A DNA stretch of 64,000 nucleotides. Origin: Escherichia phage vB-EcoP-XT73. Position 1 is the stretch's first letter. Every line of letters starts with the position of its first letter. The notes below the pieces were generated by a model. It was not told the DNA's origin. It worked only from the letters and a program-made list of their open reading frames with translations, and ran no database searches. The translations under genes and the position numbers were made by a program. Location: the sequence record OR757436.1; one strand, written 5' to 3'. Below, piece after piece: positions 829 through 16,165 of this stretch.

Positions 829-1376
829 AGAAAAAGAAAGTGTTTGCATTTGATATCGAAAGTAATGCACTATACGATGACATAACTAAAGTATGGTGTA
901 TTTACATTTTCGATGTTGAAACTGGTGAAAGGTGGGGCTACCGGCCTCACCAAATTGAAGATGGGATTCGTAAACTTACAGAAGCAGATGTACTAGTAGG
1001 TCATAATATTATTGACTTCGACTTACCTGCTCTGAAAAAGATATATCCCTCTTTGATTAAATATAATTTTAACGTCTTTGACACTCTGTGTCTTAGTCGA
1101 TATCTTAAACCTGACCGTATTGGTGACAGTCCTGAGTATCCGAAAGGTGACCCTAGACATGGCCCAAGAGGTCATGGTTTGAAGCAATGGGGTGAGTTCT
1201 TAGAGGAACTTAAAGGAGACTACGGTGAGCAAGAGGAAGCATGGGATGCTTTCACTGAAGATATGTTTACTTATTGTGAACAGGACGTTAACTTAACAGT
1301 TAAGGTTTATAAATACTTGTGTGAACTCACAGGATTTGACCCTTACGACCCACCTTCATTATATTGGAAAATGTAA
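822..1376 (+). CDS. DNA polymerase fragment 1: 3'-5' exonuclease domain (T7 gp5-like N-terminus)
   Basis: [48 protein letters not shown] and YCEQDVNLT match the T7 gp5 exo motifs (DIEANAL, HNGHKYDVPAL, DTLVLSRL, HALEAWGYRLGEMKGEY, YNVQDV). GTG start overlaps the helicase stop. The ORF stops at the exo/pol boundary. Confidence 0.85.
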
Positions 1377-1377
1377 A

Positions 1378-2739
1378 ATGATTGTTATCCCGATTAACCG
1401 AATTGAAGATAAGGTTGCTCAACAACCTGATATCACTGTCGGTCGTCACTTCATTGAACAGCTGATTAACAACAACTTGATTCCAGATGGTATCTGTCCC
1501 ATCATTACTGGTGGGGCTGTTCGTGACGCTGTTCTTAATAACATAGCACCTCATGACATCGATATCTTTATTGTCAGAGGACAGACACCAAGAACTCAAA
1601 ACACTTTCATCCGTCATGAACAGTGGCAAGCTCTTGGGCGTGAGATTGAAAGCAATGTGAAAGAGTGGCTAGAGTCACAAGATATTGAGTATTCATCTCT
1701 TCTTGCTGAAACTACAGATGAACCATATACAGGAACTTCCCAATTAACATTCACTGATATCATTGAATTTCAGTGGCAGGGAACTCGAATCCAATTCATG
1801 TTTAATTATCCCACTTCTATCGAAGAGGTATTGGATAATTTTCCTATGATGTGTCGTGGTGCGATGACCCTTGAAAACCTATTCATGACTCCTCATGGAT
1901 ATTTGGCTATGACCGCTCCCTGTCCAGTGGTTGTTTCTAGTCGTGAAATCAGATATGTTCACAAGAAGTGGCCTAATTCTCAGGTATTAAGATTCTCATC
2001 TCCAGCAGTTGCACATCAATACATGGCCCAAACTCGATACCTTCCCACACCTCAGCCGGTTAGTCATCTGGTCAACGAACGGGGTCAGGTTGCTCTTATT
2101 GAGGATACAACAAGTGCTCAGTATTGTGTTGACCGAGATATGAGTCTATTCTTTGGTATACCTTATGAAGAGATTCAGTTAATGTCGAGTCTTAACGGCT
2201 CTGGTCGGGTTCATGCGTATTGGTCTGAAGGGTTGACAAACTTAACAACTAATACAAGAGGAGATCTCCTTGGTCGGGAAGAGGAACCTAATCGGAACAA
2301 TGTAATTGAAGGGGTGTTTGTAGCCCCTGCAATGCGCCGAGCACAAGAGTCACGAAATCTAAGCTCTACTCGTAGAACATCTTTTGAAGAAACTCTTGGT
2401 GTTACTAGCGATTCATTTGAGCGGTGGTTGTCTAGACGTTCTAATGGTCAATCAAATGGTTTGACTGTTAGCCGTCACCAGTTCTCTGGTCAGAGTTTAG
2501 CTGTTGGTAATAGCAACGCACCTGTTATGGCTGTGTGGACCGATGAAGGTGTGGCCCAAGATGTGGTAAGTAGTCTTGATGTCCCTTCTCATGGTGAATT
2601 AGCTGAGACCGTCAGCCGCAATCTCGCTGATCGGTTTGTTGCTAACAACCCTGAAGTATTAGAGCCTCAAACCCGTACAGTTCGGTTTGCCGATGAAGCG
2701 GGTCGTGGATTTTCTTTTGACATGGAAACAAATAACTAA
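1378..2739 (+). CDS. Pol-beta-superfamily nucleotidyltransferase-domain protein (CCA-adding/poly(A)-polymerase-like head motif) with a low-complexity S/T/R-rich C-terminus
   Basis: Motif PIITGGAVRDAVLNNIAPHDIDIFIV resembles the GGAVRD...DxD signature of class II tRNA nucleotidyltransferases. ATG sits 1 nt after the exo-fragment stop (ATGTAAAATG), suggesting translational coupling. Confidence 0.5.
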   Translation: MIVIPINRIEDKVAQQPDITVGRHFIEQLINNNLIPDGICPIITGGAVRDAVLNNIAPHDIDIFIVRGQTPRTQNTFIRHEQWQALGREIESNVKEWLESQDIEYSSLLAETTDEPYTGTSQLTFTDIIEFQWQGTRIQFMFNYPTSIEEVLDNFPMMCRGAMTLENLFMTPHGYLAMTAPCPVVVSSREIRYVHKKWPNSQVLRFSSPAVAHQYMAQTRYLPTPQPVSHLVNERGQVALIEDTTSAQYCVDRDMSLFFGIPYEEIQLMSSLNGSGRVHAYWSEGLTNLTTNTRGDLLGREEEPNRNNVIEGVFVAPAMRRAQESRNLSSTRRTSFEETLGVTSDSFERWLSRRSNGQSNGLTVSRHQFSGQSLAVGNSNAPVMAVWTDEGVAQDVVSSLDVPSHGELAETVSRNLADRFVANNPEVLEPQTRTVRFADEAGRGFSFDMETNN

Positions 2740-2748
2740 GGAATAAAA

Positions 2749-3282
2749 ATGAGTTTACTAGGAAGTGTTGAACTACACGATGTAATTGATAATGGCTATC
2801 TGGATGCGGAGCATAAGTATGTTAACGCTGCTAGTGTGGATATCCGTATTGGTGATACTATCCTTGTTGAAGAACAGGCTGATGGCATCGTTGATATTGA
2901 TGCGAAAGAAAATCTTCAGTGGAAGGAAGTAAAAATCCCTGAAGAGGGCTTGGTTATCACTCCGGGTCAGTTCTTCTTGGCTCACTCTATGGAGGAGTTT
3001 AACCTTCCAGATAACATCTCAAGCCTGTTTGTTCTGCGTTCGTCTATGGCTCGTTGTGGTTTGAACCACCTTCACGCCGGATGGGCAGATGCAGGATTTA
3101 ACAGCAGTAAGCTGACATTTGAGTTCCATAACGTAACCAAGCATCATAGCTTACGAGTTCGTGCTGGTATGCGTGTTGGTCAGATGGTGATGTTTGAGCA
3201 CTCTCATGCAGGGGAACATTCCTATGCAGTGAAGGGTCGTTATAATAACTCTGAAGGTGTAGTTGCATCTAAAGGTGTGTAA
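2749..3282 (+). CDS. dcd: dCTP deaminase / dUTPase-superfamily protein
   Basis: 177 aa with SVDIRIGD, VITPGQFFLAHSMEEF and RSSMARCGL, typical of dCTP deaminases. Confidence 0.75.
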   Translation: MSLLGSVELHDVIDNGYLDAEHKYVNAASVDIRIGDTILVEEQADGIVDIDAKENLQWKEVKIPEEGLVITPGQFFLAHSMEEFNLPDNISSLFVLRSSMARCGLNHLHAGWADAGFNSSKLTFEFHNVTKHHSLRVRAGMRVGQMVMFEHSHAGEHSYAVKGRYNNSEGVVASKGV

Positions 3283-3489
3283 ATGACTGAAGAAGAGTTC
3301 CAAGAACTGAAAGGTTTGACTACCGAGGTTCAATTAAAAGCTATTACTTTTGGTCGAGCATGTCATCAATTTGATATATGCGTCGAAAGCAGTAAAGAAG
3401 CTTGTAAGAGCTATATGGATAAGAAGCACCTTGAATGGGGTAAAGCCTCTAACGATCTTTATAACTATATGAAGGGTTTAGTAAAATGA
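3283..3489 (+). CDS. hypothetical protein
   Basis: 68-aa ORF tightly packed between neighbours. Confidence 0.4.
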   Translation: MTEEEFQELKGLTTEVQLKAITFGRACHQFDICVESSKEACKSYMDKKHLEWGKASNDLYNYMKGLVK

Positions 3490-3683
3490 AAAAGTGGATT
3501 GTTCGTGTACATGATGATACGACTGGAGACTTGGTAGCTGTAGATTTTATTAACACTCGAGAACACGCCCGTAGGGTCAAAAACCAATACAAGTCTACTT
3601 TTAGACTCAATAAGGTTACAATAGGAAAAGCTATTGTGAATAACGAAGGTGCTCTTTTTGCCAACAGCAAGGTTTATTATTAA
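3486..3683 (+). CDS. small protein, paralogue family A
   Basis: Shares W-I/V-R-V ... F-T-R-x-x-A-R-x-x-K ... K-V-x-Y-Y pattern with the ORFs at 3683, 3892, 6442 and 13529. Confidence 0.5.
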   Translation: MKKWIVRVHDDTTGDLVAVDFINTREHARRVKNQYKSTFRLNKVTIGKAIVNNEGALFANSKVYY

Positions 3684-3892
3684 TGAGACCAATCACTATG
3701 AGACAGTTTTGGTTAGCAAAGATTAAGTGGGCATCAGGTGGTATGACTATGACTGCACTTCCTACTCGTCAACAGGCTCGAGATTTTAAAAAGACTATGC
3801 TTACTGGTGACGTGGTCAATAGTATCAGTATCCATAAGGCCAAGGAGTATTCTTCTGGTCGTGTTTATATCAGCGGAAAGGTACATTACTAA
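3683..3892 (+). CDS. small protein, paralogue family A
   Basis: Tandem paralogue; start overlaps the upstream stop. Confidence 0.5.
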   Translation: MRPITMRQFWLAKIKWASGGMTMTALPTRQQARDFKKTMLTGDVVNSISIHKAKEYSSGRVYISGKVHY

Positions 3893-4101
3893 TGAAAAAG
3901 ATGTGGGCGATTCGTGTTGTTTGGGATCTTGATCAACACACGAGAAAAGATAGCATCAAATTGTTTGACACTCGCAAAGAGGCTCGTATTGCTAAGAAAC
4001 AGTTGAAGACTCTGGGCACAATAGTAAAAAGCGCTGATATACATCGCTGGTACGAAGACCCTAACTCGGGTTCTTTTATGTCTAAAGTAATTTATTACTG
4101 A
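3892..4101 (+). CDS. small protein, paralogue family A
   Basis: MKKMWAIRVVWD...FDTRKEARIAKKQLK...KVIYY; third tandem copy. Confidence 0.5.
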   Translation: MKKMWAIRVVWDLDQHTRKDSIKLFDTRKEARIAKKQLKTLGTIVKSADIHRWYEDPNSGSFMSKVIYY

Positions 4102-4125
4102 TTGGTAGTAGATATGGTAACTCTC

Positions 4126-4134
4126 AAATGTATA
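4126..4134 (+). promoter_or_regulatory. AATGTATA promoter-like motif upstream of the 4174 gene
   Basis: aAATGTATAtagag about 40 bp upstream of the ATG; same core as the motifs near 9156 and 15352. Confidence 0.4.
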
Positions 4135-4173
4135 TAGAGTACAATAAGAATTTGTATTTTACAGGAGAGAGTT

Positions 4174-4500
4174 ATGTTAGATTTGAGTAAAGTGGCCCCG
4201 CCCACTGAAGAGATTACAAAATCCAAGGTGATGCAACAGTTTTATCATCGTGATATGCTTGGTCGCTTTATCAAGAATCGTGATGTTGTTGCTTGGTCTA
4301 TTGGTAATCAGGGATATCTGTTGAAGGTTCTTCAGGTTACAGGTTCAACTGCTAAGCGAGTTAAGGTGTATGACCCTGAAATGGGGCGTTCTAAGTCAGT
4401 AGACCCGCAGAACTGCATCGTAATTACCCAGCAGGTGATAGCAAATCTAGAAAGAAATGTAGCAAACTCTACTGAGTTAGAAGGAGAAGACCCTAAGTGA
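4174..4500 (+). CDS. hypothetical protein
   Basis: 108-aa ORF with AGGAGAGAG RBS upstream. Confidence 0.5.
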   Translation: MLDLSKVAPPTEEITKSKVMQQFYHRDMLGRFIKNRDVVAWSIGNQGYLLKVLQVTGSTAKRVKVYDPEMGRSKSVDPQNCIVITQQVIANLERNVANSTELEGEDPK

Positions 4501-4990
4501 TTCCAAAGGAATTGGAAGGGAAGATTGATGTAACAGAGGATGGTAGAGTATTTACTATAAAAAGTGGAAGGTTTTAACCCTCCACACTAATGGTGCCTAT
4601 TACAGAGTTACTATTTACTTTCCTGAAGGATTAAAGAATTTCTATGTCCACAGGCTGGTTGCTAGTAAGTACATACCGAACCCTGATAATCTTCCATGTG
4701 TCAACCATAAGGATGGCAATAAACTTAACAATCATAAAGATAATCTTGAATGGTGTACCCACCGAGAAAACTCTCAACATGCATCATCATTAGGTCTGAT
4801 GGTACAGAGGTTTGGAGAAGACAATCCGCAGTCTAAACTTACTCTAGAAGATGTAGAGTACTGTAGGAGAGTTTATATCCCTCGAGATAAAGAGTTTGGA
4901 GGCTCTGCCCTTGCAAGACGTTTTGGTGTCTCTCAGCAAGTGATATCAAAAGTTCTACTTAATCAAACTTGGAGGGAATATAATGCATAA
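4497..4990 (+). pseudogene. HNH homing endonuclease, interrupted by a frameshift at an A5 run (about 4559-4563)
   Basis: Frame 3 from GTG 4497 gives MIPKELEGKIDVTEDGRVFTIKSGRF then stops; the -1 frame continues YYRVTIYFPEGLKNFYVHRLVASKYIPNPDNLPCVNHKDGNKLNNHKDNLEWCTHRENSQHA to 4990. No in-frame start precedes the HNH core. Confidence 0.5.
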
Positions 4991-5546
4991 GAATGTTTTT
5001 GATTTACCTGAGATTGGTCGTGCCGAATATAATATGTTAGACCGATCAGAGCTTTCAATCTCTCGCCTTGAAACAATGCAGGGTATGATTAGTGGAAACA
5101 GCCTAGAACACATCCTGAGCTGCTTACAAGCTAACATAGAACTCTTGCATATCAAAGCTAAAAACTACCATTGGAACGTCTCTGGTGCAGGATTTCAGGG
5201 TGTTCATGGTATGTTTGATGAGCTGGAAGATTACGCACGACAAGTAGGAGATCGTATTGCTGAACGTATGCGTTACCACTGTGTTAAAGTGGACGCCACA
5301 GCAGCCAATTATCTCTCCCATGCTTGGTTCTCAGAGGGTAATGCTGACCTAGATATGGACGGTATGCTCTCTGATATGTGCATGACCTTGATGTGTATTA
5401 TTGAGAAGATGGATGAGTTTGATGGTGATTTAGCCACTTATCCAGTTGATCAGAGTATGCTTCAAGAAATTAATGAAGGTCTTGGCAAGTATTGCTACTT
5501 CGTCAAGAGCAACATGTCCCACTCAAGTGGCGATGTGTCTTACTAA
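4983..5546 (+). CDS. dps: Dps-like ferritin-family protein
   Basis: LHIKAKNYHWNVSGAGFQGVHGMFDELEDYARQVGDRIAERM aligns with the E. coli Dps ferroxidase region ([25 protein letters not shown]...DTMAERA), including the His/Asp/Glu positions. Confidence 0.7.
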   Translation: MHKNVFDLPEIGRAEYNMLDRSELSISRLETMQGMISGNSLEHILSCLQANIELLHIKAKNYHWNVSGAGFQGVHGMFDELEDYARQVGDRIAERMRYHCVKVDATAANYLSHAWFSEGNADLDMDGMLSDMCMTLMCIIEKMDEFDGDLATYPVDQSMLQEINEGLGKYCYFVKSNMSHSSGDVSY

Positions 5547-5608
5547 AAACCTCCGCCCTGTCTCCTAACCCGAGGTGGGGCGAACTTATTTATAAGGATA
5601 TAGATATA

Positions 5609-5787
5609 TGTTATCAGCAATCGTATGGGGTATTTGGGCTGTCTTTATTGGTGGTGGTATCTATTGGGCTTCTGGCAAGCTTATTGAAGAAACTCCTGAC
5701 AAGAAAGGTGAGATTCAAACAGCATCAACCATCATGGTTGTCGTAGCTGTTGTTATCCCATTCCTGCTTCACCTCCTGACTGCATAA
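5609..5787 (+). CDS. small two-segment membrane protein
   Basis: 59 aa (MLSAIVWGIWAVFIGGGIYWASGK...VVVAVVIPFLLHLL) with two hydrophobic segments; below the ORF-track length cutoff. Confidence 0.35.
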
Positions 5788-5796
5788 GGGTTTGAT

Positions 5797-5982
5797 ATGA
5801 TTTCACTGATTGTGTGGGCCGTGTGGTCGTTAATAGTTGGTACTGTTATATATAAAGCTCGAAATTTAGCAATTAAAGAAAACCCAGCAGAAGAGGATGT
5901 TAAAGCTATCAAGCTAGGCAGTGTTGTTCTGGTACATTTTGCTATAACACTACCTCTTGTTATTATTCTTTGTATGCTATAA
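5797..5982 (+). CDS. small two-segment membrane protein, paralogue of 5609
   Basis: MISLIVWAVWSLIVGTVIYKA...LVHFAITLPLVIILCML; same hydrophobic pattern as the upstream ORF. Confidence 0.4.
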   Translation: MISLIVWAVWSLIVGTVIYKARNLAIKENPAEEDVKAIKLGSVVLVHFAITLPLVIILCML

Positions 5983-6172
5983 GGAAACCAAAGAGTGAAA
6001 CTAAACCTACCTGAAGAATTACAAGCACATGCCATTATCGTTAGTGGCTGTGTGATGGGTCTTGGTCAAACAAAGAAGATTGCTCATGACTTAGCAAAAG
6101 GTCAGTATAAATCTTTTATTGTTGTTCCTGCTACCCAACGTCATATCAACCTGTTTATTAACAAGGAATAGA

Positions 6173-6445
6173 ATGTCTAAAGTGATTAAGTTTTATAGCG
6201 ATCAGTGTGCTCCATGTAAAGCAATGGCTCCTACCTTTGAGAAGGTTGTTAAGGAGTTCGATGTAGAAGTAGAAGAGATTAACATCCTTGAAGGTGATGG
6301 TCGTGAACAAGCTGTTAAGTATGGTGTAAGAAGCATCCCTGCTTTCGTTGTACCTGACCGTAATAGTGGTGCACACTATAGTCTCTCTGGTATGCAGACC
6401 GAAGCAAACCTGAAAGCATTCTTAACTACTGCCCTAGGTGTTTGA
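6173..6445 (+). CDS. thioredoxin
   Basis: FYSDQCAPCKAMAPTFEKV...KYGVRSIPAFVV aligns with the thioredoxin CxxC active site and the KYGIRGIPT strand. Start chosen at the internal ATG preceded by AAGGAA. Confidence 0.7.
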   Translation: MSKVIKFYSDQCAPCKAMAPTFEKVVKEFDVEVEEINILEGDGREQAVKYGVRSIPAFVVPDRNSGAHYSLSGMQTEANLKAFLTTALGV

Positions 6446-6651
6446 TTATGAAAAAATATTGGACGGTGGTATATTACCTCTACCAAGACCCGGCTATACC
6501 TGTTACAGAGCACTTTGCTACTCGTAAAGATGCTCGCCGTTTTAAGAAGGCTCTTAAGATGGCCCCAAAGATTTATAGTAAAGTAAGCTTACATAAATCA
6601 ACATTGTCAGAGATGGGAACCTTAGTGGTTTATTATGTAAAAGAATATTAA
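6442..6651 (+). CDS. small protein, paralogue family A
   Basis: MIMKKYWTVVYY...FATRKDARRFKKALK...LVVYY. Confidence 0.45.
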   Translation: MIMKKYWTVVYYLYQDPAIPVTEHFATRKDARRFKKALKMAPKIYSKVSLHKSTLSEMGTLVVYYVKEY

Positions 6652-6666
6652 TAAGGAAATTCACGG

Positions 6667-7323
6667 ATGAATGAACAATTACAAGCAACATTAATCGAAG
6701 CTATGGGAAGTGATCGTAGCGTAGTAAACGCAGCTCGAGTTTCCTTTGGCGTAACCCGTGAAGGTGATTTAAATGAACGTGATGAACGTCTCATCAACTT
6801 CCTCGCAAGAGAGAAGCATGTTACTCCATTCCGACACCCACAAGTCAGTTTCCGATGCAAAGCACCTATCGCAATTGCGAGACAGTTGGGCAAGCATCAG
6901 GTTGGATTCTCGTGGAACGAAATGTCCCGGCGGTATAAAGATGGAGCAGTTGAAGTCTTCATCCCTAAAGAGATTTTTGCGAGACCTTCGGACCTCCATG
7001 CAGGTTCAGGGGTTCAACTCATCGATGGAGAACGAGCTGAAGCATTAATGTTGATTAACGATGCATACGAAGCTTCTCTAGCAGCATATGACAAGTTGAT
7101 TGAATTCGTTGCACCAGAACAAGCCCGATTTGTTCTTCCTCAGGGAATGATCACTGAGTGGGTGTGGACTGGTTCTTTGTATGGCTGGTTTGAGTTGTGT
7201 CGTCAGCGACTATCCTCCCATGCTCAGTATGAAGTTCGAGTGTTTGCTCAATCTCTGGATGAAGAGATGGCTAAACTCTACCCAATCTCGTGGGCAGCTC
7301 TGAAGAAAACTTTGGAGAGTTAA
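6667..7323 (+). CDS. thyX: flavin-dependent thymidylate synthase (ThyX)-like
   Basis: 218 aa with HVTPFRHPQVSF and SWNEMSRRY segments resembling ThyX RHR and S-x-R-Y motifs; sits in the nucleotide-metabolism cluster. Confidence 0.55.
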   Translation: MNEQLQATLIEAMGSDRSVVNAARVSFGVTREGDLNERDERLINFLAREKHVTPFRHPQVSFRCKAPIAIARQLGKHQVGFSWNEMSRRYKDGAVEVFIPKEIFARPSDLHAGSGVQLIDGERAEALMLINDAYEASLAAYDKLIEFVAPEQARFVLPQGMITEWVWTGSLYGWFELCRQRLSSHAQYEVRVFAQSLDEEMAKLYPISWAALKKTLES

Positions 7324-7508
7324 TGACACATAAAGTGTGTAGCTTCTGTAAGAAAGAGAAGACTATCATCAACTTCAAACCTAATCCTGTAACTGGTCTG
7401 TCTCATGTTATGTGTCACTCTTGTAGGATATATCTTGAAACAAAGCACACCATTAACAGGTTGCATTATTATCACCCAACAACATTCAAATTTAAGGTTG
7501 TTAAATGA
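7323..7508 (+). CDS. small Cys-rich (zinc-ribbon-like) protein
   Basis: MTHKVCSFCKKEK...MCHSCRIY; start taken at the internal ATG after GGAGAG. Confidence 0.4.
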   Translation: MTHKVCSFCKKEKTIINFKPNPVTGLSHVMCHSCRIYLETKHTINRLHYYHPTTFKFKVVK

Positions 7509-7708
7509 AAACATTATGGACTCTTGACTGTCAAGATGATGACGGAGAGCGTTGGACTTGGAAATATTTCCTAGGGAAACCAACACCCGAGAACCCTGCT
7601 TTGGATTGTGCTTCATATGAAGATGCTAAGAAGCTGGTAAATGGAGAAAAGGTTTGGTCTCCGGATAATGAAGTTCAGTACTTTTTAACAGAACGGAAAT
7701 TTTCATAA
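7505..7708 (+). CDS. hypothetical protein
   Basis: 67-aa ORF, overlapping start/stop with neighbours. Confidence 0.4.
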   Translation: MKTLWTLDCQDDDGERWTWKYFLGKPTPENPALDCASYEDAKKLVNGEKVWSPDNEVQYFLTERKFS

Positions 7709-8031
7709 TGATTGACGGTAATACATTTAGGACTTCAAATGGAAGTGAAATAAGTCCCGCTGAAGTGATTAATCGGCACAGAAGGCAATTGATCATCCAT
7801 TCCTATTTGTATTACTGGTTGGATGACCCTATCTGGTCTGATGATAAATGGCAACAAGTTGCTAACGATTTGGTTGAGTTGCAAGCCTTGTATCCAGAGC
7901 CTACCGGAGTCTTTGACAATGAGTTCAAAGATTGGGATGGTTCTACAGGGATGCATCTCCCACATAACGAAGCTGTTGCTTGTATGGCGACAGCTGTTTA
8001 CAGACTTCATAAAGAGGTTAACTTCGCATGA
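7708..8031 (+). CDS. hypothetical protein
   Basis: 107-aa ORF. Confidence 0.45.
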   Translation: MIDGNTFRTSNGSEISPAEVINRHRRQLIIHSYLYYWLDDPIWSDDKWQQVANDLVELQALYPEPTGVFDNEFKDWDGSTGMHLPHNEAVACMATAVYRLHKEVNFA

Positions 8032-8228
8032 GCGTAGTTTATGTTCTAGAAAGATATGCTGAAGATCACAACAGTATTGTTGCCATATTTAAATATGCCC
8101 CAGATGTTGAGGATATTTTGAATGTGACTCACTTAACTGATGTTGATAAAATCAAAGACCTCATCAGGAATGACAATGCCCACATAGGTGACTCTCTGTG
8201 GTCTCTTACCGAATGGACATTGTGGTGA
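8028..8228 (+). CDS. hypothetical protein
   Basis: 66-aa ORF. Confidence 0.35.
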   Translation: MSVVYVLERYAEDHNSIVAIFKYAPDVEDILNVTHLTDVDKIKDLIRNDNAHIGDSLWSLTEWTLW

Positions 8229-8410
8229 AGTGCTCTAGATGTGAAGGGACAAACCTTCATTTAAGTAACAAGGTTATCAGAGAGCTTGCCAAAGGCTCTC
8301 CAACCAAAGGGAAGAACAAACGATTTACTAACGTCAGGGTTTATACAGCAATCTGTAAAGATTGTTTAACTACTGAATGTCATTACGAAGAAATTGGAGA
8401 GCGTAAATGA
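8198..8410 (+). CDS. small Cys-rich protein
   Basis: KCSRCEG ... CKDCLTTECH; the true start may be the internal Met (MDIVVK). Confidence 0.35.
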   Translation: MVSYRMDIVVKCSRCEGTNLHLSNKVIRELAKGSPTKGKNKRFTNVRVYTAICKDCLTTECHYEEIGERK

Positions 8411-9144
8411 GTCGTCGTCAATCACGGAAAGAATCACGGAAAGACCTTCGTCGGGAAGCACTTGTCACTCGTAAGGGTAAGCGCGAGTTTGAAGAGGTGG
8501 TTTTAGCAAAGCCTGTAGTCCCTCAGAACCAGTTCCAGTCTGAACTGCTCAATGCTATCAAGACTAAACAAGTTGTGTTCACAGACGCTCCTGCGGGCTG
8601 CGGGAAGACCTTTGTAATCACTTCCACAGTTATTGATGCACTGAAGAGTGGTAAGATTCAGAAGATCATTCTGAGTCGCCCTTCTGTTGGCATGGGTAAC
8701 TCACTTGGGTTGCTTCCGGGAGGAATGCGTGAGAAATTTGAACCATATCTGATGCCAATCATTGATGTTATTACTCAGAGATATGGTAAGGGGTTCTATG
8801 AATGCCAGCTCGGTAATAGTAACATTGAGTTTGTACCTCTGGAGTATCTCCGTGGTCGTTCTTTCAATGATGCTATCGTTATCGTTGATGAGTTCCAGAA
8901 CACCACTAAAGATGAAGCCTTCTCAATCATGACTCGATTGGGAGAAACCTCTCAGCTGTTCTGCATGGGTGATACAAACCAGCATGATATGCGTGGTCGT
9001 GAGAGTGGTCTTACTTGGGCTACTAACTTTATTGATGAACATGATCTGTATGAGTTCGCTGAGATTGTAGACGGCGAATCAGATGACATTGTTCGTTCTG
9101 GTTTCTGTAAAGCTATTGTTAAAGCAATGGAAAAGAAAGCTTAA
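8407..9144 (+). CDS. phoH: PhoH-like ATPase
   Basis: Walker A APAGCGKT and Walker B-like IVIVDEFQN in the PhoH arrangement. Confidence 0.85.
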   Translation: MSRRQSRKESRKDLRREALVTRKGKREFEEVVLAKPVVPQNQFQSELLNAIKTKQVVFTDAPAGCGKTFVITSTVIDALKSGKIQKIILSRPSVGMGNSLGLLPGGMREKFEPYLMPIIDVITQRYGKGFYECQLGNSNIEFVPLEYLRGRSFNDAIVIVDEFQNTTKDEAFSIMTRLGETSQLFCMGDTNQHDMRGRESGLTWATNFIDEHDLYEFAEIVDGESDDIVRSGFCKAIVKAMEKKA

Positions 9145-9155
9145 ACAGTAACTTA

Positions 9156-9164
9156 TAATGTATA
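9156..9164 (+). promoter_or_regulatory. TAATGTATA promoter-like motif
   Basis: acttaTAATGTATAct about 40 bp upstream of the 9201 start; shared with 15352. Confidence 0.45.
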
Positions 9165-9200
9165 CTCCTTAGTGTACACTGATATATTAAGGAGTTTTAA

Positions 9201-9524
9201 ATGGCAGACCATGTAGGAAAGAGAGATTATGCACAAGAAAGACGTACCGCCATCGCAAGGGGTGAAACGGGAATTGGTAGCAAGAGCGGAGATGCTCAGC
9301 GCCACCGTGCACGTCGCATCGTTGAAAAGCGCGATGGAAAAGCTGCTGTCAGAGGTAAAGACGTTGGACACAAGCGAGCCATCAAGTCAGGAGGCTCTAA
9401 TGCGTCAAGCAACTTACGTGTTGAAACAGTCAGCGGAAATCGTTCAGCTGGCGGCAAAAGTGGAGATCGAGCTGGGAAGGCAGCTGGCGCTGCTAAGCGA
9501 AAAGGAGCTTTAAGCTCCTCGTAA
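9201..9524 (+). CDS. basic, Gly/Arg/Lys-rich low-complexity protein
   Basis: AAGGAG sits 7 nt upstream of ATG 9201. An alternative overlapping frame (9229..9513) encodes a helical-looking 94-aa product; the sequence alone does not decide between them. Confidence 0.35.
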   Translation: MADHVGKRDYAQERRTAIARGETGIGSKSGDAQRHRARRIVEKRDGKAAVRGKDVGHKRAIKSGGSNASSNLRVETVSGNRSAGGKSGDRAGKAAGAAKRKGALSSS

Positions 9525-9532
9525 TATGAGGC

Positions 9533-9565
9533 TACCCAAATGGGTGGCCTTTTCTTTTATATAAA
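9533..9565 (+). terminator. rho-independent terminator
   Basis: ggctacccaaatgggtggcc hairpin followed by ttttcttttat. Confidence 0.6.
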
Positions 9566-9592
9566 CCGAATTAAACTTCTTAGGTAATAACT

Positions 9593-9841
9593 ATGTCTAT
9601 TGTAAAAACTGTAACTATTATTGATGTAATGACTGTCCGTCTGGTTAAGTGGAAATTCACCAACAATCATGGCATTGCTAATCTCATTGCAAACCAGATT
9701 GGTCATAACCCAAAAACAGCTCGTACTAACGTAATCCTCCGTGGTGCTGATGGGAAGTTCATTTCTTATAAGAATAAAGATGTAGAGAAAGAATTCCGTG
9801 TTGCAGTAGAAAACCTCATCCCATTCCCTAAAGGAGTTTAA
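9593..9841 (+). CDS. small protein, paralogue pair B
   Basis: ...HNPKTARTNVILRGADGKFISYKNK...LIPFPKGV; paralogous to the next ORF. Confidence 0.5.
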   Translation: MSIVKTVTIIDVMTVRLVKWKFTNNHGIANLIANQIGHNPKTARTNVILRGADGKFISYKNKDVEKEFRVAVENLIPFPKGV

Positions 9842-9842
9842 T

Positions 9843-10118
9843 ATGAATAAATTAGCTATGGTTCAGATTCGAGACATATACCCTAACCATCCGGAGAAAA
9901 CTTGGTCTTATCTGTTGACTGAAAGCAAGACTATTGACACATATCTTGCAGGGGTTGACACTATCCCAACCAGTATCACATTGCTCCCTCACAAAACAGC
10001 CAGAACCCATGTGATGTTACGTGACAGCAAAGGTAAGTTTATCTCTTATCGAGATGCTCGAATCAATAGCGAAATTAAATCTGCTATGGAATCTTTAACG
10101 CCATTCCCAAAAGGTTGA
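9843..10118 (+). CDS. small protein, paralogue pair B
   Basis: ...HKTARTHVMLRDSKGKFISYRDA...LTPFPKG. Confidence 0.5.
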   Translation: MNKLAMVQIRDIYPNHPEKTWSYLLTESKTIDTYLAGVDTIPTSITLLPHKTARTHVMLRDSKGKFISYRDARINSEIKSAMESLTPFPKG

Positions 10119-10281
10119 GTGATGAAAGAATATATTTACGTAGGAAAGCGCTGGGTCGGTGATGAATGGGAAGGTGGATACAGCGTTGTGAAAGCTTTTA
10201 AGTCTGAAGAAGATGCTAAGGCGTGGGTCTTAAAAGATGACGTTGGTGAGAGAACTTACATTGAAGTAGAGGTGGAGTAGA

Positions 10282-10698
10282 ATGCCATTACCAGCTAGAC
10301 ATCAAAACAGATTCCTAGTTCTCAAGTGGGATGATATCGAAATGAATCTCACTGAACACGAACTTGATTTGTTCCATGAACTGTTGTCAGAGATTCGCTC
10401 TGGTATCCCTGATCGTCAGTATGTAGTTATCAGTGATAAGCACCCTCAAGAGTTTGAAGAAGTTTGGGGTATGAAGTTAGCTTATATCCAGAGAGCTATT
10501 CGAGAAAGAGAAGAAGTCGCTAACCAAAGGGTTGTGGCCCATTTAGTACGAGAGCAACCTCGTGAAGCTGGGGCTAACCATGCACCACCTCCTCCTCGTA
10601 CAGTTATCAATGGGATGGTTAGGGCTTATAGTGACGAAGCTACCATGTTAGATGTGGTAGAAGATAACCAAGCATTTACAGATTTACTTTACCAATAA
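10282..10698 (+). CDS. hypothetical protein
   Basis: 138-aa ORF immediately upstream of the polymerase-domain gene. Confidence 0.45.
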   Translation: MPLPARHQNRFLVLKWDDIEMNLTEHELDLFHELLSEIRSGIPDRQYVVISDKHPQEFEEVWGMKLAYIQRAIREREEVANQRVVAHLVREQPREAGANHAPPPPRTVINGMVRAYSDEATMLDVVEDNQAFTDLLYQ

Positions 10699-10714
10699 TT
10701 TAAAGGAGTATAAA

Positions 10715-12559
10715 GTGAGCAACCCGGACGCTCTCCCATTTTTGACAGAGATGACTGTCGCTGATATAATCTCTAAGCAAGCGAAGCACGGAGTGAGTTT
10801 CAACCGAAGAAATGCTCGGTGGTATGTTCACCTCCTTAAAGAGATTATTGTTAATATTGACAAAGAACTGATTCCTCTCTTACCTAAGATGCGATTAGAT
10901 GGCTCTACTTACATGAAACCATTTAAGAAGTCTGGAGCTTTACAGAAATGGCCTCAAGCCTATTGTGATAGAGTTGGACTTAAGAGAGAAGACATTGGTG
11001 GAGCATTCACCTGTGTTGAATACGTAGACTTTGACCCATCGAAAGATGCACGAGTTAAAGAAGCCCTTATGGATGAGGGTTTTCTTCCTCCAGAGTTTAA
11101 CGTATCAAAGAAACCTTGGAATACTTTTGAAATCAAGAAAGATATGCGAAAGTATGGAACATACCAAGCATGGTATTCAGCTTGGATGCGAGGTAATGCT
11201 AAACAGAAGCAGACAGCCGAGATGGTTGACGCTGATATTAGGAAGTTCTTAGAAAAGCATTTTAGGTTTAAGACTAAGAACTATATGAAGGCTTATGTAT
11301 TTGGTTTAGGTTTAAATCCTAACCGACGTAGACCTATCACTTTTGACGAGATTAAGATAGCACTAGCTACCTCAAACAAGTGGCCTACAGCTCCTACAAA
11401 CCTCGAGGAGACTCTTGAAGAAGGGTTAGGGGGTGAGTTAGGAAGTGTCGGAAGTTTGCTTAAGAGACGCGTTGTAGCGGCTCACAGGCTAGGTCTTATC
11501 AGTGGACTAATAGCAAAGGAACGCGAAGATGGTAAACTTTCGGCAGAAGCTAACAGCTGCGCTACGCCGACTTTTCGATTCAAACATCGTATCGTGGTTA
11601 ATATTCCCTCCCGTGGTTTGTTTGGTCATGAGTGTCGCAGTTTGTTTGAGTCTGACTATAACTCAGATGATGATCACTCTCGTCCTTTCGTTATTACTAA
11701 CGTTGTTCCTGATGGTTGTTATATACGAAAAGGTACTAACGTAATTTACGAGAAAGGTAAGCCGGGGAAGAAAGATAAGCCTGTAGGTGCTTACAAATAT
11801 TACATACCCGCTGGTAAAGAAGTATTCTTAGGGTATGATGGTTCTGGGTTAGAGTTGCGTATGCTGGTACATTATCTAGTAAAAGAGTGCCTTGATATGA
11901 TGGAGGAGGCTAAACTAGAAAATGACAAAGTTAAATATCTAAGAGCTGAGAAAGGCTTAGAAGCTGCCTATACATACAGAGATGTACTGCTGTCTGGTGA
12001 TATTCATTCCCACAATCAGAAACTCGCTGGGCTTCCAACTCGTGACAATGCAAAAACCTTCATCTATGGATTCCTGTATGGAGCAGGAGCAGCTAAAATT
12101 GGGGAAATAGTTGGAGGGGGTGCTCAAGAAGGTGAAATTCTTAGAGAGCGATTCTTAGCGGAATGTCCTTGTATTCCTATCGTACTGGAGAGAGTTCAGG
12201 CCCGAGCGGAATCAGGCACTTTGGAAGGTGTGGATGGTCGTAAGTTAACTATGAGACGAGATGCTACTGGTAAGGTTATGGTGCATAAAGCACTGAATAC
12301 TCTACTTCAGAGTGCAGGTGCCATTGTCATGAAGTACTCTATTCTGTTTACAAACAAATGGGTAGAGCAGCAGAATATTAGAGGAAACAAAGTGATCGAT
12401 TATCATGATGAAGCACAGTGGTCTGTCAACCGTAACGACGTTGATAAAATGAAGAAGATAGCTGAGACTTGTGTTAAGAAGGCAGGTGAATATCTAAACA
12501 TGCACTGTGAACTAGCTTCTGATTGTAAAATCGGATTGAATTGGATGCAAACTCACTAA
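10715..12559 (+). CDS. DNA polymerase fragment 2: family A polymerase domain (T7 gp5-like)
   Basis: DGSGLELRMLVHY, GDIHSHNQKLAGLPTRDNAKTFIYGFLYGAG, ALNTLLQSAGA and YHDEAQ match T7 gp5 (DASGLELRCLAHF, GDIHTKNQ...PTRDNAKTFIYGFLYGAG, ALNTLLQSAGA, VHDEIQ). GTG start after AAAGGAG. The N-terminus aligns with T7 residues just after the exo domain. Confidence 0.9.
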   Translation: MSNPDALPFLTEMTVADIISKQAKHGVSFNRRNARWYVHLLKEIIVNIDKELIPLLPKMRLDGSTYMKPFKKSGALQKWPQAYCDRVGLKREDIGGAFTCVEYVDFDPSKDARVKEALMDEGFLPPEFNVSKKPWNTFEIKKDMRKYGTYQAWYSAWMRGNAKQKQTAEMVDADIRKFLEKHFRFKTKNYMKAYVFGLGLNPNRRRPITFDEIKIALATSNKWPTAPTNLEETLEEGLGGELGSVGSLLKRRVVAAHRLGLISGLIAKEREDGKLSAEANSCATPTFRFKHRIVVNIPSRGLFGHECRSLFESDYNSDDDHSRPFVITNVVPDGCYIRKGTNVIYEKGKPGKKDKPVGAYKYYIPAGKEVFLGYDGSGLELRMLVHYLVKECLDMMEEAKLENDKVKYLRAEKGLEAAYTYRDVLLSGDIHSHNQKLAGLPTRDNAKTFIYGFLYGAGAAKIGEIVGGGAQEGEILRERFLAECPCIPIVLERVQARAESGTLEGVDGRKLTMRRDATGKVMVHKALNTLLQSAGAIVMKYSILFTNKWVEQQNIRGNKVIDYHDEAQWSVNRNDVDKMKKIAETCVKKAGEYLNMHCELASDCKIGLNWMQTH

Positions 12560-12934
12560 ATTCAGAACTGAAAGATTGGAATACAAATGAACTAGTCTTA
12601 TTGATTAGTTCATAACAAGGAGATTGAAGTGGAAGAGATGCCATCGGATTGGTGTTATCGTCAGAGCGCCATCTGTAATGAACAAGGACGTCCTGATGAA
12701 GCTGAGTTTTATTTAGAACTCGCTGAACTATGGAAAGAGAGAGAGGAAAAGAATGACTGCAACTGAATTGAAAGAAACCATGTCCACTGAAGAAGGTAAA
12801 GCTTTCTTCCTAACTCAAGTACACTCTATGGGTAAAGATGCCCTTCGCCAAGCAGTCGTTGAGCTTACTGGTGTAGTGATTGACTTGAGTATTGAAAATG
12901 AAACACTTGAAGCTAAAGTAAAAAGTTAAATAAG

Positions 12935-12957
12935 AAGCTGCCTTAGGGCGGCTTTTC
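12935..12957 (+). terminator. possible terminator hairpin
   Basis: agctgccttagggcggctt followed by ttcttg; imperfect stem. Confidence 0.3.
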
Positions 12958-12975
12958 TTGTCTAAAGGATTTGAC

Positions 12976-13368
12976 ATGAATATTGGTTTAGATTACGATG
13001 ATACTTACACCTCAGATAAGAAGCTGTGGCGCTCTGTGGTGGCATTAATGCAAGCCAAAGGTTATGATGTGCGTTTTGTAACTTATCGCTTTGCAGAGCC
13101 TAATGGATATGATAATCACGACATTAAGATTGATGCAGAGTGTTTGCAGATTCCTATCATCTTTTGCAATGGTGTTCAGAAAGATAACGTATGTCGCCAG
13201 TTAGGTTTCTTTGTAGATATCTGGATTGACAACTTCCCTGTTGGAATCCCTAAGAAGGACCACCTAGATGGGATGCTGAAGGGCGTAAGACCTAATGACC
13301 TTAGGGCAGCACCTCCTGTAGAAATAGCCGCTCCTGTGTACTCTGAAGAGCCTCTGGTGATTCGATGA
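12976..13368 (+). CDS. hypothetical protein, possibly HAD-like phosphatase
   Basis: N-terminal IGLDYDDTYT resembles the HAD DxDxT motif; weak. ATG 12976 chosen because the upstream start would lie inside the hairpin. Confidence 0.35.
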   Translation: MNIGLDYDDTYTSDKKLWRSVVALMQAKGYDVRFVTYRFAEPNGYDNHDIKIDAECLQIPIIFCNGVQKDNVCRQLGFFVDIWIDNFPVGIPKKDHLDGMLKGVRPNDLRAAPPVEIAAPVYSEEPLVIR

Positions 13369-13528
13369 AAAAGTATAGTGTATGGTTTAACGAGGTAGAA
13401 GAAGGTTTTGATGAAGTTGGTGGATGGGTTAATATCCTAAACACTGATGATATAGAAGAGGCCGAGAAGTGCGCCCTAAACTATAACTCTGGATATTATG
13501 AAAGAAATTGGGAATACGAGGAAGAAGT

Positions 13529-13750
13529 ATGATTTGGATTCACACTTATAGAATTGGAAAGAAAGGGCTTACTACTGTTCACACATCTGAAGACAGTGCT
13601 AAAGCATCTCAGGCTGTACTGAAAGGAAAGATCACACCTTATGTAGTCGCTGAAGAAAAGAAAAGTCCTCCGGTTCTAGAATATCTAGGAACAGGTAAGG
13701 CTTACACAGCACTGGATGTTATTAACAACAAACAAGGAGATGTGGTGTAA
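13529..13750 (+). CDS. small protein, family A-like
   Basis: MIWIHTYRIGKKGLTTVHTSEDSAKASQAVLKG...; GAGGAAGAAG precedes the ATG. Confidence 0.4.
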   Translation: MIWIHTYRIGKKGLTTVHTSEDSAKASQAVLKGKITPYVVAEEKKSPPVLEYLGTGKAYTALDVINNKQGDVV

Positions 13751-13967
13751 AATGGAATACATTGATAAATACTCAAGTGAAGATTCAAAAGACGCTGAAG
13801 TTTTGTTCGTACTGAAAACAGACTGTTTAGAACATGGACAGCTTATCAACTTTATTGAATTGGCAAAACTTAAAGAAGAAATTGATCAACTATACAGTGA
13901 TGAGCAATCCAGATTACTTTCCTTGTCCCTGCTAGGTGACTTAACCTGTGATGGTTGCATGATATGA
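13740..13967 (+). CDS. hypothetical protein
   Basis: Small ORF; either ATG 13740 or 13752 is a possible start. Confidence 0.35.
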   Translation: MWCKMEYIDKYSSEDSKDAEVLFVLKTDCLEHGQLINFIELAKLKEEIDQLYSDEQSRLLSLSLLGDLTCDGCMI

Positions 13968-14437
13968 TAGAAGATCTTCTGGATGAGTTCTTTGTTTGTG
14001 ATTTATCATCTGGGAAAGTGTTCTGGAGAATTCACAACGGAACAAAATGCAGGCGGGGTGACGAGGCAGGAACTTCAAAAAAGGATGGAAGAGTGCTTAT
14101 TCGATTGAAAGGAAGAGCCATTTACAGATACCACATCATTTGGTATTTTGCTAATGGTGTTTTACCTAAAGATCAAATAGATCACATTGATCGAAACCCT
14201 TCCAACGATTCCATAGGCAACCTTAGAGAAGTTAACAACGAGAATAATTCTTGGAACAAGGGTTTGAACTCTAACAACACATCAGGAGCTAAGGGCGTAT
14301 ACCTCAATTCAAGAGGGAAGTACATAGCCAACATACATATTAGAGGTAAAACTAAATACCTAGGAACTTTCTCAACCCTAGAGGAAGCCGTCTCTGTTAG
14401 AAACAGAGCGGAGGAAGATCATAAATTAACTATCTAA
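13955..14437 (+). CDS. HNH endonuclease with AP2-like DNA-binding domain
   Basis: RYHIIWYFANGVLPKDQIDHIDRNPSNDSIGNLREV (HNH core) followed by GAKGVYLNSRGKYIANIHIRGKTKYLGTFSTLEEA (AP2-like). Confidence 0.7.
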   Translation: MHDMIEDLLDEFFVCDLSSGKVFWRIHNGTKCRRGDEAGTSKKDGRVLIRLKGRAIYRYHIIWYFANGVLPKDQIDHIDRNPSNDSIGNLREVNNENNSWNKGLNSNNTSGAKGVYLNSRGKYIANIHIRGKTKYLGTFSTLEEAVSVRNRAEEDHKLTI

Positions 14438-14446
14438 GAGGTCTTT

Positions 14447-15085
14447 ATGGCTGAAGTTTATTTTGCAGGAGATGGTCACTTAGGCCATCGAAACATCTGT
14501 AGTTTTCGTAAGCAATTTAAAAACATCGAAGAACATGACAAAGCAATTCTGGCTGCTTTTGACCACGTAACCAAACGTGATAAAGTTTTCTTTACCGGTG
14601 ATTGGGTGTTTGAAAAGTATGCCCTTGACATCATCGCTGAAGTTAGAGGAGAGAAGCATCTGGTCTTAGGAAATCATGACAGATTAGAACTTCTCCCTGA
14701 TATGATGAAAGTCTTCCGTAGAATCTCTGGTGACTTTAAATATAAAGAGTTTTGGGTAACTCATATTCCTATTCACTCTGATGAAATGAGAGGAAAGTAT
14801 AATATCTATGCTCATACTCATAATTCTACTATCAGAGATTGGAGATACTTTTGTACTTCTATGGAACAGATTGATTACAGAGCTGTGTCTCTGCAAGAAA
14901 TTCGTAAAGAGTTCGCTGCAAGAAAAAGCATTTTAGAAACTACATTATTTCCAGTGGGAGATAAAAGTAGAGAGCAATTGGATGAAATCCGAAAGAAGAT
15001 TCAATTAGAATCTCAAGCAGAATCTAACTTACTTTTTCAGAGAACAGTAGAACAAACTAGTTTTAAAGGTCTTTTAGAATGGTAG
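14447..15085 (+). CDS. calcineurin-like metallophosphoesterase
   Basis: GDGHLGH, TGDWV, LGNHD and HIPIH motifs. Confidence 0.7.
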   Translation: MAEVYFAGDGHLGHRNICSFRKQFKNIEEHDKAILAAFDHVTKRDKVFFTGDWVFEKYALDIIAEVRGEKHLVLGNHDRLELLPDMMKVFRRISGDFKYKEFWVTHIPIHSDEMRGKYNIYAHTHNSTIRDWRYFCTSMEQIDYRAVSLQEIRKEFAARKSILETTLFPVGDKSREQLDEIRKKIQLESQAESNLLFQRTVEQTSFKGLLEW

Positions 15086-15279
15086 AAGTTATTGTTTTAA
15101 GTTAAGTTTTCTTTTGATTTTAATAGAGAATCAAAGTCCTAGGAGTCCTCAACCTAAATCAAGGATTTCCTCAATTCTCTATTTTTATCTCGCAGGTGTC
15201 TCCTGCCCTTCGGTACTTGCAAGGGTTACGATGATTGCCCAATATACAAGCCTGCAATAGCTTTACTAGCTATACAATA

Positions 15280-15288
15280 TATACATTA
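15280..15288 (-). promoter_or_regulatory. inverted copy of the TAATGTATA motif within an AT-rich intergenic region
   Basis: Plus-strand tatacatta is the reverse complement of taatgtata; it points away from the plus-strand gene at 15419. Confidence 0.3.
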
Positions 15289-15351
15289 CTAGTGTGTTAT
15301 ATCTACTACCAAAGATACTTATATTATATAGTACCCTTATCGGTATAAGCG

Positions 15352-15360
15352 TAATGTATA
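15352..15360 (+). promoter_or_regulatory. TAATGTATA promoter-like motif
   Basis: gcgTAATGTATActatac about 60 bp upstream of the 15419 start. Confidence 0.45.
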
Positions 15361-15418
15361 CTATACATAACCGCTCAAAGAGAGCAACAATCTTTCAAAT
15401 TAAATAAGGAAATTAATA

Positions 15419-16165
15419 ATGAGCATGATCCCAACTATCGCAACTTCTTCTCGTAAATCCAACTACGATATTATCCCTGATGGTGAATATGAAGCACGTA
15501 TCGTTCGTGTAGTAGGTTTGGGTGTTCACAATCGTGATCCTTGGGTTGACCCGAAGACCAAAGCAGTAACTCCTAAGAATCCAGCTTTCCGTATGGATTT
15601 GGCTTTCGAGCTGATTGGTGTTGATGCTACTGGTAAAGATTCCGATGGTAAGGCATTAGAACCACGTCCTGCTTGCCAGTTCAAGAGTTATGATGTAAAC
15701 CCACGAGCTAAGAACTCTGGTATTCTTGATCTCTGCAAGATGATTGACCCAAGCATTCAAGCACTGAAAGGTGATCTGTCTTGGTTTAAGGATGTGTTGT
15801 TAGGTCAGCCTGTTAACATTCTGGTTAACTCCTACACTAACAAAGCTGGTGAAGTTAAAAACTCCATCAAGACCATTTCTCCAATCCCAACCAAATATCG
15901 TGCAGCAGTTGGTGAAGCTCGCAGTCCTCTGGTATTCTTCGAACCGTATGCGGAAACCGATGAGAACGTAGCATCCTATCAACTGATGTTCCCGTTCCAG
16001 CGCAACCTGCTTACTCAAGCTAATGACGCTAAGAACATGCCTCTGGCTGGTCGTGAAATTACTCGTGCTTCTGAAACAGAGCAGAAAGAAGCTACTCCTT
16101 CAATCCCTACGATTGATAAAGAGCCTGCTTCTACTTATGAAGATGACAACGACAGCCCATTCTGA
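15419..16165 (+). CDS. single-stranded DNA-binding protein (candidate)
   Basis: 248 aa ending in an acidic tail with terminal Phe (YEDDNDSPF), as in SSB and T7 gp2.5; located in the replication block. Confidence 0.5.
   Translation: MSMIPTIATSSRKSNYDIIPDGEYEARIVRVVGLGVHNRDPWVDPKTKAVTPKNPAFRMDLAFELIGVDATGKDSDGKALEPRPACQFKSYDVNPRAKNSGILDLCKMIDPSIQALKGDLSWFKDVLLGQPVNILVNSYTNKAGEVKNSIKTISPIPTKYRAAVGEARSPLVFFEPYAETDENVASYQLMFPFQRNLLTQANDAKNMPLAGREITRASETEQKEATPSIPTIDKEPASTYEDDNDSPF

Follow-up and report, generated by a model that had tools for sequence, protein, structure and literature searches.

Four small basic paralogues in the replication block of Escherichia phage vB-EcoP-XT73, with a predicted orphan fold and a candidate role in polyanion binding

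Four small genes of Escherichia phage vB-EcoP-XT73, designated here A1 to A4, encode one family of strongly basic proteins. The window analysed is a stretch of 64,000 nucleotides of the DNA of this phage (sequence record OR757436.1). A sequence-only reading of the window had proposed five related open reading frames (ORFs) with common motifs, three of them in direct tandem; all five ORFs are present at the positions given. Sequence comparison confirms that A1-A4 are true paralogues belonging to a single protein family, and all three motifs are found in all four of them; the fifth candidate, the ORF at 13529-13750, proved to be a different protein. The family is well defined but uncharacterised, and it has an orphan fold. 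We tentatively propose that the conserved basic helix of A1-A4 binds a polyanionic ligand, most likely nucleic acid. The phiEco32-like phages are a model for the replacement of sigma factors and are common candidates for phage therapy against E. coli, although no function has been assigned to about two thirds of their genes. Here, three to four 'hypothetical proteins' per genome become one defined family with a predicted fold, invariant residues, a fixed address and an evolutionary history.

Membership of the family

The genes A1, A2 and A3 follow each other directly, as the earlier reading had described. Their stop and start codons overlap (ATGA at 3486, TAATG at 3683 and TAATG at 3892), the first overlap being that of the A1 start codon with the stop codon of the preceding phrog_2347 ORF. 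These overlaps imply that A1-A3 are co-transcribed, and the three genes are probably also translationally coupled. A2 has an internal ATG at 3698, which is the start codon in many orthologues, where the protein begins with MRQFW or MKKFW. The start of the dispersed gene A4 is most likely the ATG at 6448 rather than the TTG at 6442, because an AGGTG Shine-Dalgarno sequence lies 8 nucleotides before this ATG. The four proteins have isoelectric points (pI) of 9.8-10.6, with 11-15 Lys and Arg residues against 3-8 Asp and Glu residues. The coordinates of all genes are given in Table 1.

The relationship of the proteins was assessed pairwise, by comparing Smith-Waterman scores with those of 1000 composition-preserving shuffles. 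All six pairs among A1-A4 gave z values of 5.5-11.3, and none of the 1000 shuffles attained the observed score. The four pairs between A1-A4 and the ORF at 13529 gave z = 0.4-2.3. The shared residues, for which similarity no better than chance had been named as a possible outcome, are therefore above chance in A1-A4 and at chance level in the fifth ORF. Furthermore, all four proteins matched phrog_4939 over its full length (positions 1-67 of 67), with E-values (E) of 3.8e-27 for A1, 6.8e-28 for A2, 2.7e-28 for A3 and 9.5e-26 for A4. In a non-circular test, hidden Markov models (HMMs) that covered the database orthologues of only three paralogues at a time were run against the 985 six-frame ORFs of the window. 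Each time they retrieved the paralogue that had been left out (A1 E 2.7e-8, A2 2.8e-9, A3 2.1e-10, A4 2.2e-9), while the next-best of the 985 ORFs had only E of at least 0.9. A family HMM search of the 64-kb window found no members beyond A1-A4.

The alignment of A1-A4 gives a signature of three parts: an N-terminal strand W-x-[VI]-[RK]-[VI], the segment [FL]-x-T-R-x-x-A-R-x-x-K, and Tyr as the last residue. Residues W5, T27, R28, A31, R32, K35 and this final Tyr are invariant or nearly so when 32-40 diverse members, A1-A4 among them, are aligned. The idea that the likeness of A1-A4 is due to chance among non-coding or unrelated short ORFs fits the ORF at 13529-13750 only, with its chance-level similarity, and for A1-A4 it can be dismissed in view of the shuffles, the leave-one-out E-values of 1e-8 to 1e-10, the division of 99 database homologues into four conserved groups, ratios of nonsynonymous to synonymous substitution rates (dN/dS) far below 1, and AlphaFold2 (AF2) folds that are confident and concordant.

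The ORF at 13529-13750 is rejected as a fifth member. Besides its chance-level z values, it was not retrieved by any family HMM search of the window ORFs, and it matches phrog_36005 (E 1.1e-35) and phrog_3955 instead of phrog_4939. The comparison with hhalign of a profile made from 12 of its homologues with the family profile gave a probability of 0.1%. The signature positions, which are the Trp strand, T-R-x-x-A-R-x-x-K and the last Tyr, are absent from it. This ORF is a conserved gene of a separate family, phrog_36005, for which Kuravirus-like contigs contain 14 homologue clusters. Residues 1-44 of its product have further matches, to phrog_3955, phrog_11192 and the C-terminus of phrog_15992, and may therefore be a small mobile N-terminal module.

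Distribution, history and selection

When 5.8 billion proteins were searched with a word index, 99 homologues came up, each of 47-87 amino acids and without a Pfam domain. They form four clearly separate groups, the orthologues of A1, A2, A3 and A4, respectively; sequences of the same group are 57-100% identical, those of different groups 24-38%. Only 30 clusters at E < 1e-3 emerged when 1.84 billion cluster representatives were scanned exhaustively with HMMER, and another large search, made with a broader profile, brought up neither fusions nor relatives outside the family. Among phage records, the family is limited to phiEco32-like coliphages and Shigella phages. A structural search of the viral library BFVD returned uncharacterised proteins only, from Kuravirus-like phages, Salmonella SE131, Cronobacter vB_CsaP_009 and Aeromonas LAh_8. 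Two distant members, P0113 and P0116, had no match in phage records by tblastn, and their genomic contexts were taken from metagenomic contigs. The family is not new as an entity, since it is already catalogued as phrog_4939, with function unassigned, and about 100 phage genomes annotate its members as hypothetical proteins. phrog_4939 is the family itself, and the three tandem genes of the window are positional orthologues of gp71, gp70 and gp69 of phiEco32.

Copy number and position were surveyed in 12 annotated phage genomes and 5 metagenomic contigs. Each has between one and four copies. Three tandem copies and a dispersed one are found in the window, XT18, Paul and MN05; three tandem copies alone in phiEco32, O18-011, EP335 and IMEP8; two tandem copies and a dispersed one in EcoN5 and ECBP2; and two tandem copies alone in SU7 and FH3. 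The distant metagenomic contigs, one of which is 89 kb long, have a single copy. Every context examined is Kuravirus-like, and the family is always located in one of two slots. The first lies between the dCTP deaminase gene and the segment formed by the promoter P68, gene 68 and the gene of a Dps-like protein. The second, which holds A4, lies between the thioredoxin gene and ThyX; it is filled in XT18, Paul, EcoN5, MN05, ECBP2 and the metagenomic contig L004, and it is vacant in phiEco32, IMEP8, O18-011, EP335, SU7 and FH3. The most dispensable tandem copy is A1, which is missing in EcoN5, FH3, SU7 and ECBP2, while A2 is present in all examined genomes of Kuravirus, Nieuwekanaalvirus and Suseptimavirus. 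A neighbour-joining tree, made from short sequences and without bootstrap support, has separate clades of A1, A2, A3 and A4 across these three genera. Since each paralogue forms its own clade, the duplications are, as judged from this tree, older than the splits between the genera. Read in terms of gene order, the survey shows a family that grew from one gene between dCTP deaminase and P68, passing from one copy to two or three in tandem and to an extra dispersed copy.

The tandem array is followed by a promoter element for the phage sigma factor gp36, AAATGTATATA, which lies 26 nucleotides past the A3 stop codon according to a motif search. The consensus of gp36 promoters is tAATGTAtA (PMC8948821), and the equivalent middle promoter of phiEco32, P68, has been used experimentally (PMC12276001). 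An element of the P68 type lies within about 30 nucleotides of the stop codon of the last family gene in 14 of 15 related genomes, including the distant loci L003, L015 and L017. The exception is Escherichia phage pEC-N1203-2Af.1 (L006), in which an extra ORF of 67 amino acids, not a family member by HMM, lies between the A3 orthologue and P68 (577-780 of that locus). With the P68 element in this place in 14 of the 15 genomes, the array is always the tail of a transcription unit that includes the genes of primase-helicase, exonuclease and dCTP deaminase. Later papers place genes 69-71 in the middle cluster or at its edge; the published assignments to the late-early or to the middle class disagree (PMC8948821, PMC4281155, PMC12276001).

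The core of this element, AATGTATA, is also found in other intergenic positions of the window. On the + strand it occurs at 4127, 9157 and 15353, and on the - strand at 15280-15287. These copies lie upstream of the gene-68 homologue and of the ORF at 9201, and a divergent pair at about 15.3 kb lies upstream of the gene of a putative single-stranded DNA-binding protein (SSB). They are probably the set of middle and late promoters of the phage.

Selection was assessed by pairwise Nei-Gojobori dN/dS, both gene-wide and for the two halves of each gene split after the helix. The values of 0.22-0.30 for A1-A4 mark them as real coding genes under purifying selection, and they are 3-5 times those of the neighbouring genes (Table 1). 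The C-terminal half, which includes strands β3 and β4, has a value of 0.45 in A3 and 0.57 in A4, well above the 0.23 and 0.20 of the respective N-terminal halves; in A1 and A2 the halves do not differ. The N-terminal half of A3 is conserved, while its C-terminal hairpin comes in several discrete alleles, such as ...HRWYEDPNSGSFMSKVIYY, ...HRWIEFSEGTCMLSRNVYY and ...YRWFEFSGDRGSYISGDVYY; in some of the genomes concerned the genes on either side are 92-100% identical. In IMEP8, A3 is only 55% identical, yet dCTP deaminase, A1, A2 and gp68 are 92-100% identical. Localised diversification could explain the hairpin pattern of A3 and A4, and so could allele exchange; the pattern does not prove positive selection, and the family gives no strong sign of an arms race. 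Positive selection over the whole gene is rejected, as dN/dS is 0.22-0.30 and does not exceed 0.57 in either half. The diversifying pressure that had been suggested for the family thus finds only partial support. The old orthologous clades and the purifying gene-wide values speak against it; in its favour are the 3-5 times higher dN/dS than in neighbouring genes, the values of 0.45-0.57 for β3-β4 of A3 and A4, the hairpin alleles and the copy number of one to four.

Predicted fold and candidate functions

The AF2 model of A3 has a mean predicted local distance difference test score (pLDDT) of 87.1 and a predicted template modelling score (pTM) of 0.70. It consists of strands 2-11, 21-25, 45-56 and 60-63 and a single helix 28-40. 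The model of A1 has the same topology (pLDDT 87.5, pTM 0.74). The predicted fold is β-β-α-β-β, in which a single helix packs against an antiparallel sheet of four strands. Foldseek searches of the PDB with the family models gave nothing at E <= 1e-3. None of 32 members reached the gathering score of any Pfam-A or NCBIfam model, the best match being Ribosomal_L13e at E 0.022, which is noise. There was no meaningful match of the family to PADLOC models or to PDB sequences. A literature search on gp69, gp70, gp71 and phrog_4939 found no report; the primary phiEco32 papers were outside its reach.

The pattern W-x-V ... F-x-T-R-x-E-A recalls, as we take it, DUF2188 (PF09954) and the hybrid-binding domain of RNase H1 (Cauli_VI, PF01693), and we claim no homology to either. 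Like the family, both have an N-terminal W/Y-x-V strand, a second strand that ends in an aromatic residue and a helix that opens with T/S-x-x-E-A. However, the RNase H1 domain, of the order β-β-α-β-α instead of β-β-α-β-β, has no β3-β4 hairpin and carries an additional helix that separates strand 2 from strand 3. In hmmscan searches with 32 diverse members, DUF2188 was not matched at E <= 1, and Cauli_VI was matched by one member only, at E 0.15 and far under the gathering score. Homology to either domain is rejected on account of this lack of hmmscan support and, for the RNase H1 domain, also of the different topology, and we regard the resemblance as a common helix N-cap pattern. A RelE/YoeB-like toxin, which the terminal Tyr brought to mind, is rejected as well, for its order of secondary structure differs and no match supports it.

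In the function that we tentatively propose, the sole helix would be capped by T27, and the segment T-R-x-x-A-R-x-x-K would make up the N-cap and the first three turns. By helical periodicity, Ala31 and residues 34 and 38 would form a hydrophobic stripe towards the sheet, and Arg28, Arg32, Lys35/36 and Lys39 an exposed basic ridge. This ridge, together with the invariant Trp and the last-residue Tyr, would bind a polyanionic ligand common to all members, which could be DNA or RNA of the phage or of the host during replication. Each paralogue would owe its own specificity or partner to the variable β1-β2 loop and β3-β4 hairpin. A common and slowly evolving ligand is suggested because the surface of the ridge is conserved across deep divergence, and nucleic acid is the first choice because of the strong basic charge and the context of the replication module. 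Moreover, the family genes are close to the gene of a Dps-like DNA-binding protein in the middle (replication) cluster.

Several points weigh against nucleic-acid binding. We only infer that A1-A4 bind nucleic acid, and the exposure of the Arg/Lys ridge is predicted from helical periodicity alone. The variation in copy number, the allelic hairpins and the raised dN/dS would suit an inhibitor that targets proteins at least equally well. Furthermore, the family proteins were not among the 34 proteins detected in the lysate proteome of phage SU10, which is weak evidence, since small basic proteins are easily missed.

An inhibitor is an alternative that is almost as likely, in which every paralogue would bind and block a host protein of its own, for instance a nuclease or sensor of a defence system or a factor of replication or transcription. 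The variable β-hairpins would serve as the recognition surface, and duplication would widen the range of targets. The small size and tandem expansion of the family, its one to four copies among close relatives, the elevated dN/dS with the fast β3-β4 halves of A3 and A4, and the discrete C-terminal alleles of A3 within near-identical neighbourhoods, as in IMEP8, are all in keeping with such a role, as is the insertion hot spot at the array junction. The T4/RB69 antitoxin Dmd, AcrIIC3 and the Ung inhibitor p56 of the phi29 family are, like A1-A4, small (50-120 amino acids) stand-alone single domains with an α/β two-layer architecture, encoded by early or middle phage genes; the structural resemblance of the family to them is weak and non-significant. 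However, all dN/dS values, gene-wide and in halves, are below 1, and the paralogues are old and orthologous across genera instead of recently radiating. No Kuravirus-like genome seen, not even a distant one, is without a copy, and the fixed place of the family is in the replication module and not in the early host-takeover cluster. Searches for anti-defence proteins and defence components gave no PADLOC model match and no significant fold match. Many characterised inhibitors of defences that act on DNA are acidic DNA mimics, whereas A1-A4 are strongly basic.

Less likely, A1-A4 could be accessory subunits or regulators of the phage machinery for replication or nucleotide metabolism. Each paralogue would then have a different phage partner among the gene-68 protein, the Dps-like protein, dCTP deaminase, thioredoxin, ThyX or the replisome. 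The strict synteny across deep divergence, in the orders dCTP deaminase-family-P68-gene 68-Dps-like and thioredoxin-family-ThyX, would agree with this role, together with the translational coupling in the array, the purifying selection and the core-like presence in all relatives. However, A4 and A1 are dispensable in many genomes with almost identical enzymes, and the 45-60% divergence of A3 is hard to ascribe to partners that are themselves 93-100% conserved. No fusion or domain co-occurrence indicates a partner, as all members stand alone at 47-87 amino acids.

An anti-defence reading of the orphan fold is unlikely too. In it, a ligand site made of the Trp, Arg, Arg, Lys and Tyr residues would allow the paralogues to neutralise different host immune components or signals, which might be nucleotide second messengers, defence nucleases, or systems that target tRNA or other RNA. 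The last of these targets would fit the genes for a CCA-adding-like nucleotidyltransferase, RtcB and a Macro domain in the block of relatives. If true, A1-A4 would represent a new class of basic, multi-copy anti-defence proteins inside a replication module. A sponge for signal nucleotides or other small ligands is very unlikely: the Trp, the terminal Tyr and the Arg/Arg/Lys residues would form a pocket that sequesters an immune signal or an anionic metabolite, with the paralogues tuned to different ligands. All that fits this idea is the mix of aromatic and basic residues at the invariant positions, along with the expansion into paralogues and the small size of the proteins. Pfam, PADLOC and PDB searches gave no similarity to the known sponges Tad1, Tad2 or Acb2, and the position in the replication module does not suggest it.

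If nucleic acid is the ligand, as we tentatively propose, the family would be a new small DNA- or RNA-binding fold, and if host proteins are bound it would be a new inhibitor family. Either outcome would be of moderate, specialist interest and would alter no general concept; the family is a reasonable, not an exceptional, target for experiments.

The gene block and its neighbours

The region 3283-6700 of the window is 99.7% identical to Escherichia phage vB-EcoP-XT18 and 92-98% identical to NJ01, 172-1, MN05 and other phiEco32-like podophages (Gordonclarkvirinae, Kuravirus), and the phage of the window is itself a Kuravirus coliphage. Every gene in 1-16000 is on the + strand, and this segment is the block of replication and nucleotide metabolism, that is, of middle genes. 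The earlier placement of the family inside a replication block is borne out, as genes for primase/helicase, exonuclease, dCTP deaminase, a Dps-like protein, thioredoxin, ThyX, PhoH and DNA polymerase surround it (Table 1).

Table 1 Features of the replication block and dN/dS of the family genes and their neighbours.
Feature	Coordinates	Strand	dN/dS	Remarks
Primase/helicase	1-828	+		
3'-5' exonuclease	822-1376	+	0.071	
CCA-adding/poly(A)-polymerase-like nucleotidyltransferase	1378-2739	+		PolyA_pol head domain E 6.7e-4; phrog_12715
dCTP deaminase (DCD)	2749-3282	+	0.10	
phrog_2347 ORF	3283-3489	+		68 amino acids; directly upstream of A1
A1	3486-3683	+	0.22	65 amino acids; pI 10.0; orthologue of phiEco32 gp71
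A2	3683-3892	+	0.27	69 amino acids (ATG 3683) or 64 amino acids (ATG 3698); pI 10.4-10.6; orthologue of phiEco32 gp70
A3	3892-4101	+	0.30	69 amino acids; pI 9.9; orthologue of phiEco32 gp69; final gene ahead of P68
gp36 promoter element	4125-4135	+		Core at 4127-4134; equivalent of P68
Gene 68			0.056	
Dps-like protein	4983-5546	+	0.069	
Thioredoxin		+	0.16	
A4	6448-6651	+	0.25	67 amino acids; pI 9.8; dispersed copy between thioredoxin and ThyX
ThyX	6667-7323	+	0.079	
PhoH	8407-9144	+		
DNA polymerase	10715-12559	+		
Putative SSB	15419-16165	+		Acidic C-terminal tail ends ...DDNDSPF

The junction between dCTP deaminase and the array (3283-3489 in the window; related loci L004, L007, L008 and L013) is a hot spot of insertion. 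It is occupied by the 68-residue phrog_2347 ORF in the window, XT18, Paul, MN05, IMEP8 and O18-011, and by an HNH endonuclease in EcoN5, O18-011, FH3 and contig L004; phiEco32 has no insert there. Another HNH gene, of a homing endonuclease, separates the gene-68 homologue from the Dps-like gene at 4498-4992 of the window. XT18 has an intact copy; in the window the gene is frameshifted, one T being missing from a T-run near 4572, and its remnant is a tail ORF of 63 amino acids at 4799-4990. The frameshift is either that of a pseudogene or a homopolymer sequencing error. phiEco32 lacks this insertion between gene 68 and the Dps-like gene.

Two further tandem pairs of small paralogous genes are found in the block. 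The ORFs at 5608-5787 and 5797-5982 encode hydrophobic proteins of about 60 amino acids that both belong to phrog_9296, and the ORFs at 9593-9841 and 9843-10118, both of phrog_6814, have the common sequence KTART-V-LR--GKFISY...PFPKG. Judging from these two pairs, small genes in the block seem prone to tandem duplication in general.

The homologue of the nucleotidyltransferase in contig L004 (5539-6759) has a precomputed Pfam match, labelled 'faint', to the anti-Gabija protein Gad2. In distant relatives, RtcB and a Macro domain are encoded within the same block (10396-12011 of locus L015). Taken together, the nucleotidyltransferase, the Gad2-like match, RtcB and the Macro domain hint at RNA repair or counter-defence.

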